Assembly (NCBI GenBank): GCA_010093705.1
Contig: MU006089.1
Coordinates: forward strand, 154,875 to 218,874
Direction of reading: 5' to 3'
DNA: 64,000 bases
Source of the DNA: Patellaria atrata CBS 101060
Taxonomy: Eukaryota
In this document: positions 59,671 to 60,833 of the stretch, piece after piece
Position numbering within the stretch: the first letter of the stretch is position 1
Layout of the letters: each line of letters starts with the position of its first letter
Position numbers and translations under genes: made by a program
The notes under the pieces: model-generated
The model's input: only the letters and a program-made list of their open reading frames with translations
Told to the model about the DNA's origin: nothing
Databases searched by the model: none

Positions 59671-60473
59671 TCAACTTGCGGCCGCGCTCGAATCCGGAAC
59701 ACTGAATTTGAACACCGGTATTTCGATACCCTTCTCTTTGAGGGCCCCTTTGACATCTTCATATACTTCCTCTGGCAACTTAGTCGCAGATATCTTGACA
59801 ACCCGACCTTCAGACTCGAAATGCTCCACGACGGGCATGCTAGTCTCGACGAACGTTCTGAAACGCTTCTTGATAGATTCGAGATTATCATCACTGCGGC
59901 CCGAAGTCTTACCACGATTTAGAAGGCGCTCTTGCATCACGTCTTCGGGGCAATCGAAGAAGAGGGTAAATTTGGAGGGAACAACGGCCTCTTCGAACTT
60001 AAGGGCTTGGTCCATTTTACGGGGGAAGCCTAATCATAATAGCCGATTGAGCAGTGTTCAAAGTATACAATAAGAAAATTACGTGGCAAGGAGGTGGAGA
60101 AGAGAAAACAAACGGGAAGGGAAGATGCGAGGGCTAACTCACCATCGATCAAAAACAATCGTTTATTATCTTTCTCAATACTAGCCGTCATCGCGTTTTC
60201 CAGCAGTTGTATTGTGACTTCCATGGGCACTATCTGTCCGTCTTTTATATAGTCCTTTATCATCTCGCCGAATTCACTATCAGGCCGGTCCTGTTCTTCA
60301 CGGAGCAGATCTCCCGCACTGAGGTGCTTGAAAGCATAGTCTCGAACTAAGAATGCGCATTGAGTTCCTTTTCCTGATCCAGGTCCGCCCAGGACGAAGA
60401 CAACAGTCGCTTCAGAAGGATCATATAACGGTTTGGTGCGGTTAGGTGTCGGGAGTGCTTCGACTGCTGGCAT
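59671..60473 (-). CDS. URA6: UMP-CMP (uridylate) kinase
   Basis: [37 protein letters not shown] and [11 protein letters not shown]. Intron 60142-60030. Confidence 0.95.
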
Positions 60474-60506
60474 TTCGGAAGCTGGAAGGTCTATCTTCTA
60501 AACTAT

Positions 60507-60833
60507 CTATTTGGTACCTGCGCGGGGAGCCGCAGAGAGTTGACGGTTGGCGTTAGCTGGAGCAGTACCCTGGCGGGACTTCACGATCTGCGTAAACAAG
60601 TACGAGCCGATTGCAAAGATGGCTACGAACGGCCAAACCTTCAGAGGTGAGGAGTTTGGAGAGCGATGTTGTTGGAGCGTAGGTGAGGGATTATGATTCG
60701 ATGTAACTGCCTTTTGCTCCAGGAGAATTTTATTTGTGGATAGGAATCGATTGATTTCTGCTCGATTAAAGGTAAAGGAATAGATGTATGGCCTAGTACG
60801 GACGGAAGAAGATAGAGACTTGGTGAATGACAT
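60507..60833 (-). CDS. Putative 108-aa mitochondrial single-TM protein or N-terminal module, in frame upstream of URA6
   Basis: The N-terminus is S/R/T-rich and poor in acidic residues, followed by KVWPFVAIFAIGSYLFTQIVKSRQG. It ends 33 nt before the URA6 ATG in the same frame. Confidence 0.6.
   Translation of the reverse strand: MSFTKSLSSSVRTRPYIYSFTFNRAEINRFLSTNKILLEQKAVTSNHNPSPTLQQHRSPNSSPLKVWPFVAIFAIGSYLFTQIVKSRQGTAPANANRQLSAAPRAGTK

Follow-up and report, generated by a model that had tools for sequence, protein, structure and literature searches.

A bicistron-like URA6 locus in Patellaria atrata: a predicted mitochondrial microprotein and a UMP-CMP kinase whose counterparts are fused in other fungi

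Overview

In Patellaria atrata CBS 101060 a small open reading frame (ORF1) lies directly upstream of URA6, the gene for UMP-CMP kinase, and the two probably constitute a bicistron-like split locus in which a single transcription unit gives rise to a microprotein and, from its own AUG, to the kinase. The sequences compared suggest that the locus has changed between a single fused gene and a unit for two proteins, depending on the fungal class, and that in the split state it would work like a microprotein-first bicistron. The elements observed directly are the conservation of ORF1, its own stop, its free frame relative to URA6, selection on its tail, the depletion of AUGs, and a junction left unspliced in transcript-like contigs of relatives.

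According to the proposed mechanism, ORF1 would be the homologue of the presequence and anchor that are fused to Ura6 in other fungi, and in this lineage ORF1 and URA6 would be carried as separate ORFs of one transcription unit driven by an upstream, presumably single, promoter. RNAs capped upstream of the ORF1 AUG would yield the microprotein, ending at its own TAG, and URA6 would give a separate, probably cytosolic, protein of 229 aa from its own AUG, which ribosomes would reach by scanning about 350 nt of AUG-free ORF1 sequence.

Organization of the Locus in Patellaria atrata

The window, that is, the whole stretch of 64,000 nucleotides of contig MU006089.1 that was analysed, presents the following features at this locus:

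60507..60833, minus strand: ORF1, 108 aa, ending in its own TAG; predicted mitochondrial single-pass microprotein with a presequence-like N-terminus, a helix and a 24-aa tail
60582..60638, minus strand: transmembrane helix of ORF1, residues 66-84, the conserved core of the family (hydropathy, alignments)
60563..60568, minus strand: GTACTG hexamer at the intron-donor position of Sordario/Leotiomycete-like loci; no G at +5, read here as Gly-Thr codons
60474..60506, minus strand: inter-ORF gap of 33 nt with the second in-frame TAG at 60500-60498; no AUG, branch motif or notable fold (z -0.50)
60474..60830, minus strand: AUG-free zone of 357 nt, in any frame, from the ORF1 start to the URA6 start (ATG scan)
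60143..60473, minus strand: URA6 (UMP-CMP kinase) exon 1, ATG at 60473 (Pfam ADK, E 9.8e-25)
60030..60142, minus strand: URA6 intron of 113 nt with a GTGAGT donor; the equivalent intron is removed in the transcript-like contig L027 relative to L029
59671..60029, minus strand: URA6 exon 2 (Pfam ADK, E 8.6e-13)
60834..61145, no strand assigned: spacer of 312 nt common to ORF1 and the divergent PRP28 (start 61146); presumed promoter

These coordinates agree with the preliminary description of the locus, in which the end of a 108-aa ORF and the URA6 ATG are 33 nt apart, in the same frame and with two TAGs, and in which a non-coding space of about 310 bp (312 nt by our count) is common to PRP28. 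The URA6 exons total 229 codons plus the stop, and both carry the P-loop-containing ADK domain (PF00406) with scores above the curated cut-off; exon 1 is 100% identical to P0003, a protein of 229 aa bearing the NCBI name UMP-CMP kinase of Patellaria atrata, and ORF1 has been called as a separate 108-aa protein (P0002). A query of its own genome matched nothing but this URA6 locus and a single weak paralogue of the kinase. That the ORF1 leader is short is suggested by an out-of-frame AUG 31 nt ahead of its start, at 60864.

Contigs from public runs showed 0 differing letters against positions 59300-61277 of the window and no joints, so that the TAGs are not an assembly slip. The two runs are from one sample, probably of DNA and possibly the source of the assembly; they are therefore not independent, and their lack of joints has no bearing on expression.

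With regard to the neighbouring genes, eIF3m (58065-59435, plus strand) and URA6 converge in the window, as they do in 23 of the 80 relatives' loci described below, which are the best 80 of 545 (L017, L021-L023, L029, L033, L038-L040, L043, L048, L051, L055, L056, L058, L061, L062, L064, L065, L070, L077, L080 and L081). It lies upstream of URA6 on the same strand in L005, L011 and L041. PRP28 was found upstream of URA6 in two loci only (L044 and L067), many loci being too short to tell. The region encoding the PRP28 N-terminus (61146-61340, plus strand) holds a polyproline tract and short tandem repeats, at which the assembly graph breaks into short contigs, and short TACCT-type repeats occur in the spacer between PRP28 and ORF1 (61003-61040, plus strand).

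A Conserved Microprotein Upstream of URA6

The presequence-like composition and the transmembrane helix initially ascribed to ORF1 are both borne out by residue counts and hydropathy. Residues 1-65 comprise 9 K/R, 2 D/E and 18 S/T, and the best hydrophobic stretch of 19 aa corresponds to residues 66-84, with a mean Kyte-Doolittle value of 1.72. An arginine motif of the type that precedes presequence cleavage, following the analyst's own definition, is present in 15 of 31 full ORF1s.

The loci of relatives were taken from metagenome contigs, as the best 80 of 545 confirmed ones. A profile HMM of the helix detected a homologous segment upstream of URA6 in 63 of these 80, and ORF1 is thus more than a chance reading frame. 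Adding three divergent loci recognized by eye to the 63 matched ones, and removing 9 near-duplicates, gave 58 rows for comparison, the window included. In groups of five, three and four loci, the portion of ORF1 from the helix to the stop had pN/pS values of 0.03/0.62, 0.09/0.73 and 0.14/0.53, respectively; pN lies well below pS in both tail and helix, and both ORFs are conserved as proteins. The tail of the split ORF1 is therefore under purifying selection, and an anchor that selection maintains in the absence of its kinase probably serves some independent function.

Beyond these loci, a profile of the ORF1 core matched 294 clusters at 50% identity, those listed being mostly of 80-170 aa, and standalone gene calls of the microprotein exist in Periconia, Aaosphaeria, Endocarpon, Penicillium, Aspergillus terreus and Astrocystis. 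A search with the single ORF1 sequence retrieved only itself (one of six candidates). In Pfam no match was obtained for ORF1, and among 31 homologues there were three single, weak matches to families that do not fit. Feature matches in the ESM Atlas, all below 0.9 and to be taken as leads only, pointed to small mitochondrial single-pass families such as ESSS and COX7B; none of the structure matches from the same resource reached a TM of 0.5. Taken as part of the whole explanation, it is likely that ORF1 is a real gene for a small protein predicted to reside in the mitochondrial inner membrane. The early proposal that a small membrane protein of mitochondria is encoded just ahead of URA6 thus finds support, as regards conservation, in the 63 of 80 loci and in the selection on the tail, with its localisation as a prediction. 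ORF1 defines an unnamed family of predicted mitochondrial microproteins.

Two Alternaria-like loci (L033 and L039) have a canonical intron inside ORF1, from about 85 to 25 nt before the helix motif. In Astrocystis sublimbata, a Sordariomycete of the Xylariales, the gene model P0250 shows the microprotein as a standalone protein of 85 aa, and from this model the split form may also exist in Sordariomycetes.

Fused and Split States of the Locus

The relation between the helix segment and URA6 takes five forms among the loci compared. In the first (i), found in 13 Sordario/Leotiomycete-like loci, a phase-1 intron directly after the helix joins it in frame to the kinase. Donors of the GTnnG type are present in 13 of these 13 introns, and 12 of the 13 have a branch motif and a YAG placed exactly 2 nt before the URA6 ATG. 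The intron loci group with named Leotiomycete proteins (support of 0.81 in a short-alignment tree), and one of them, L056, clusters with the 352-aa fused kinase of Chaetomium thermophilum. In the second form (ii), represented by L055, the segment and URA6 are fused without any stop. The unbroken eIF3m frame of L055 was considered as proof that this contig is a transcript, and this was rejected; the genomic loci L022 and L048 also lack that eIF3m intron, so L055 can be either spliced RNA or an intronless gene. In the third (iii), that of L057 (positions 250-370), which clusters with Terfezia, the small ORF is complete, but its stop is spliced out by an intron that starts in its last codon, so that the entire microprotein and the kinase form one polypeptide. 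The joined form recurs in NCBI models and in a protein predicted from Logan contigs (P0321-P0323), and the Terfezia-like state of L057 is an intermediate.

The fourth form (iv) is the split one, in which ORF1 continues past the helix to its own stop, and it comprises 32 Dothideomycete-like loci, the window included, and 8 others, among which L025 clusters with proteins of Chaetothyriales. In the fifth (v), formed by the divergent loci L076, L079, L081 and L082, a helix ORF directly precedes URA6. These were the four best matches among 1,165 ORFs, each of them weak (E 0.05-0.9), and L076 clusters with Malassezia equina. The ORFs upstream of URA6 in L079 (1-138) and L082 (1-174) have a near-identical proline-rich tail motif, and in L081 (135-164) URA6 begins within the upstream helix ORF, with a 29-nt overlap in different frames.

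The remaining 17 of the best 80 of 545 loci gave no helix match, with 13 of the 17 offering no more than 319 nt of upstream sequence. In L060, L074 and L075 no helix ORF was detectable although more than 2,500 nt precede URA6. The ORF1-URA6 pairing is consequently not universal, and these three loci are possible losses of the helix ORF. The tree behind these groupings comprises about 100 residues and is rooted by the analyst's choice of divergent loci, and on it the change may have been either a fusion or a fission.

Many annotated kinases of Dothideomycetes and Leotiomycetes are 293-348 aa long and have an ORF1-type helix at the N-terminus, and in Dothideomycetes such fused models would weigh against a split locus. 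The junctions of these fused models are uniform in Leotiomycetes and vary in length and place in Dothideomycetes. To judge from the protein models, taken apart from their DNA, the fused Dothideomycete URA6 models would result from predictors bridging a stop and are probably wrong. In many databases the ORF1-type microprotein is hidden inside fused URA6 models which, for Dothideomycetes, are probably erroneous.

The membrane-anchored fused kinase envisaged in the preliminary description does exist, by way of a canonical intron, but it belongs to other fungal classes and is unlikely to be the main product in this species. In answer to its question on how the two parts are related across Pezizomycotina, they are fused in some classes, and where split they are separated by stops and vary in frame. 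The locus offers a natural series that runs from a stop-free fusion, through parts joined by an intron and a stop removed by a terminal intron, to a split form with an AUG-free first ORF, which is material for studying the evolution of dual targeting and gene fission.

Frame, Stops and Splicing at the Junction

In the 32 non-redundant Dothideomycete-like split loci (from the best 80 of 545), URA6 lies in the three possible frames relative to ORF1 in 15, 11 and 6 cases, ORF1 ends in TAA (14), TAG (13) or TGA (5), and the gaps between the ORFs measure 3-116 nt, all of these being counts over related loci that overstate their independence. The relation in the window is in frame, as in 15 of the 32 comparable loci, and is therefore no more than expected by chance. 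In this light, the idea that both UAGs are bypassed, either by readthrough or by UAG-to-UGG editing, to give one fusion protein appears highly improbable. The window does combine frame 0 with two TAGs, and frame 0 is the commonest class (15/32), but the locus search was ranked by tblastn score with an in-frame query and in itself favours frame 0. Moreover, 17 of the 32 loci have URA6 out of frame with ORF1. Among the 15 with both in one frame, ORF1 ends in TAG in 5, a second in-frame stop is confined to the window and L017, and the linkers are unrelated, differing in length and sequence. No conserved in-frame UAG followed by a conserved coding linker was thus found, given the three stop types, the distribution of frames and the variable linkers. 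The RNA fold at the junction was no better than that of shuffled sequences (z -0.50, with 62 of 200 shuffles as good), and a readthrough hairpin was rejected on this basis. Variation in frames, stops and linkers, together with the lack of an unusual fold, makes both readthrough and editing improbable. The earlier suggestion of such recoding is hence not sustained, frame and stop varying freely among relatives and the double TAG not being conserved; to all appearances in the sequences compared, the in-frame double TAG of the window is incidental.

Splicing could in principle achieve the same fusion. The two candidate introns put forward at the outset, of 87 nt from 60568 and of 36 nt from 60517, both with the acceptor at 60482, indeed preserve the frame and, as stated then, have no good branch point: in neither was a branch motif detected within 45 nt of the acceptor. 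If either the 87-nt (60568-60482) or the 36-nt (60517-60482) intron were partly spliced, the product would be a membrane-anchored mitochondrial kinase as in Sordario/Leotiomycetes. Besides the preserved frame, the 60568 donor occupies the position of the canonical donor of 13 relatives, and spliced or stop-free fusions do exist in the Terfezia-like P0321-P0323 and in L055. A further argument comes from the neighbouring eIF3m gene, whose first intron in the window (58282-58341, plus strand, 60 nt) begins with GTACCA, a weak donor that has no G at +5 and is identical to the hexamer of the 60517 candidate. Its splicing restores the conserved peptide of relatives, which means that weak donors work in this genome. 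That intron does contain a branch-like motif, unlike the two candidates.

The comparison with real introns also weighs against partial splicing. All 13 donors of the intron loci are of the GTnnG type, whereas at the same position the 32 split loci have GT in 13 and GTnnG in 2, the codon there varying among GGT, GGC, GGA, GAA and GAC, and the hexamer after the helix in the window (GTACTG) is not GTnnG. A branch motif with a YAG near the URA6 ATG was found in 0 of the 32 split loci, the window included, against 12 of 13 intron loci. In addition, contig L027 is almost letter for letter the genomic L029 minus its 52-nt URA6 intron, and yet it keeps the TAA, the 22-nt gap and the ATG. The same applies to L008, L009, L010, L012 and L024, which lack the URA6 intron and retain stop and gap; L010 and L012 are near-duplicates of L008, so the six spliced transcript-like contigs represent four independent types. 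In these transcript-like contigs of Pleosporales relatives the junction is thus unspliced. A frame-preserving intron is accordingly unlikely to provide the main product in this species; a minor spliced fusion is possible, and partial splicing as an explanation of the locus must be rated improbable.

Proposed Production of Two Proteins from the Split Locus

One feature that bears on the expression of the split locus, as one unit giving a microprotein and URA6 from its own AUG, is the scarcity of AUGs ahead of URA6. In the window, the 357 nt that separate the ORF1 and URA6 starts contain 0 ATG in any frame; of 51 coding tiles of this length taken from the window, 0 lack an ATG. Between a point 99 nt before the helix motif and the stop, the 32 split loci contain 0 in-frame Met in 2,864 codons (URA6: 85 in 3,200), a deficit that derives partly from one helix column and that, like all these counts, comes from related loci and overstates independence. 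The same zone has 3 out-of-frame ATGs versus 18.5 expected, all three in the ORF1 intron of L033 and L039, and the gaps of these loci have 0 ATG in 1,298 nt versus 15.2 expected. Altogether, 30 of the 32 loci are AUG-free before the second ORF, and the other two have AUGs inside the intron only. For comparison, the real introns of the 13 intron loci hold 18 ATGs in 2,712 nt, and a hand count in 18 of 20 listed loci gave 34 ATGs in the roughly 2,400 nt that precede the ORF1 start. The AUG-free zone comes as close as about 15 nt to the ORF1 start in 20 of 20 mapped loci, the intron of L033/L039 excepted, and 4 of the 20 have one extra ATG each within 15 nt after that start. Such a zone implies that ribosomes scan ORF1 on their way to URA6. 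The 8 other split loci carry 7 in-frame and 2 out-of-frame AUGs, 2 of the 8 being AUG-free.

These data bear on whether the pair is simply two ordinary overlapping genes, with a URA6 promoter deep in ORF1 and an ORF1 RNA polyadenylated separately within the URA6 coding region. In line with this arrangement, 5 of the 6 spliced Pleosporales-like contigs begin inside ORF1, and 6 of the 8 other split loci tolerate AUGs within the helix. Against it, the AUG-free zone of the 20 mapped loci reaches to about 15 nt from the ORF1 start, with the exception of the L033/L039 intron, which is far beyond what a short URA6 leader would need, and the spliced contig L009 spans URA6 together with the whole of ORF1, its start included, although contigs spanning both ORFs do not prove a single RNA molecule. 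We regard two overlapping genes as an unlikely account. Even less probable is termination at the ORF1 stop followed by reinitiation at the URA6 AUG. The gaps are short (3-116 nt) and AUG-free, as this route would want, and an 80S-mediated form of reinitiation has been evoked on bicistronic constructs in yeast, but reinitiation has no need for AUG depletion across all of ORF1, and according to the available text of the yeast study the classical form follows short uORFs and the reinitiation reported there was seen only in an activated strain (PMC11952965).

Within the preferred reading of a single unit with two products, the localisation, the single promoter, the cap positions and the initiation route are predicted elements, and two routes to the URA6 AUG deserve consideration. 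Ribosomes may start from caps placed just downstream of the first AUG, which is our tentative preference, held at somewhat under even chances, or they may leak past the ORF1 AUG on a short leader, which is possible and a little less favoured. The short leader suggested by the AUG 31 nt before ORF1 would permit either route. At -3, ORF1 starts in 29 loci have A in 18, C in 8, G in 2 and T in 1 (A in the window), and URA6 starts have A in 27 and G in 2; purines thus occupy this position in 20 of 29 ORF1 starts versus 29 of 29 URA6 starts, the two sets being compared with one another rather than with a genome-wide baseline. The ORF1 start context, although weaker than that of URA6, is not clearly weak, which argues against classical leaky scanning, and together with the extra ATGs tolerated near the ORF1 start it tips the balance slightly from pure leakage towards caps located either side of the first AUG. 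As for the original proposal that one transcript may yield both the microprotein and the UMP kinase, the locus does look like one unit with URA6 read from its own AUG, but the leaky scanning invoked there is indistinguishable from the use of downstream caps.

Comparison with Known Systems

In dual-targeted yeast genes of the HTS1/VAS1 type, 5' ends lie on either side of the first AUG and determine whether a mitochondrial or a cytosolic product is made. The choice of 5' end would likewise decide between a mitochondrial and a cytosolic product at the split URA6 locus, except that both HTS1/VAS1-type products share the enzyme domain whereas the upstream product here carries no kinase.

A possible budding-yeast counterpart is Min9 of S. 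cerevisiae, whose systematic name, YKL023C-A, presumably places its gene beside URA6 (YKL024C). As described in the available text, Min9 is an 8.5-kDa protein of the mitochondrial matrix/inner membrane with unknown function (PMC5494306), and its likeness to ORF1 is only a lead, by description and gene name. A broader scenario, which we consider rather doubtful, would have an ancient, truly bicistronic mRNA translated by leaky scanning, with the microprotein being a mitochondrial Ura6 anchor that was fused, joined by an intron or released from Malassezia to Pezizomycotina, and Min9 its released form in budding yeast.

A link between UMP kinase and mitochondrial targeting has a precedent in Komagataella phaffii, where Ura6 was found in mitochondria (Valli et al. 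2020, PMC6981350). The same source, in its available part, predicts a mitochondrial Ura6 for K. lactis, C. albicans, Y. lipolytica and O. parapolymorpha and gives that of S. cerevisiae and S. pombe as cytosolic (PMC6981350). In K. phaffii, however, it is the kinase itself that is mitochondrial, whereas at the present locus the part for targeting and anchoring forms an ORF by itself, closed by its own stop, a comparison that draws on descriptions of the yeast proteins. A fused mitochondrial Ura6 thus appears to be already known from a yeast, and the literature searched, which left aside most subscription papers, yielded no description of the split, AUG-free ORF1-URA6 arrangement.

A parallel in layout is provided by the bicistronic loci of green algae, which are translated by leaky scanning (Duenas et al., PMC11291117) and which also combine a small first ORF, a close second ORF and strong AUG depletion before the latter. 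They differ in having weak Kozak-like contexts at the first ORF and exclusively bicistronic RNAs (PMC11291117), while the ORF1 context is mostly good here. The present case also resembles that of the human SLC35A4 uORF microprotein STREMI, a protein of the mitochondrial inner membrane whose ORF precedes an unrelated housekeeping ORF in the same RNA and whose proposed origin is readthrough after retroposition (PMC13303939). The two ORFs considered here are instead parts of a protein fused in other lineages. Fungal RNAs extending over two ORFs are also represented by the polycistronic readthrough transcripts of Agaricomycetes and Fusarium (PMC4503453, 10.1101/2021.11.08.467853). The genes concerned, in the accessible account, are also independently transcribed, with mean product lengths of 256 and 277 aa, a spacing of 364 nt and a pairing that declines outside the class (PMC4503453). 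Compared with these looser units, the ORF1-URA6 pair is set only 3-116 nt apart and has been kept across several classes.
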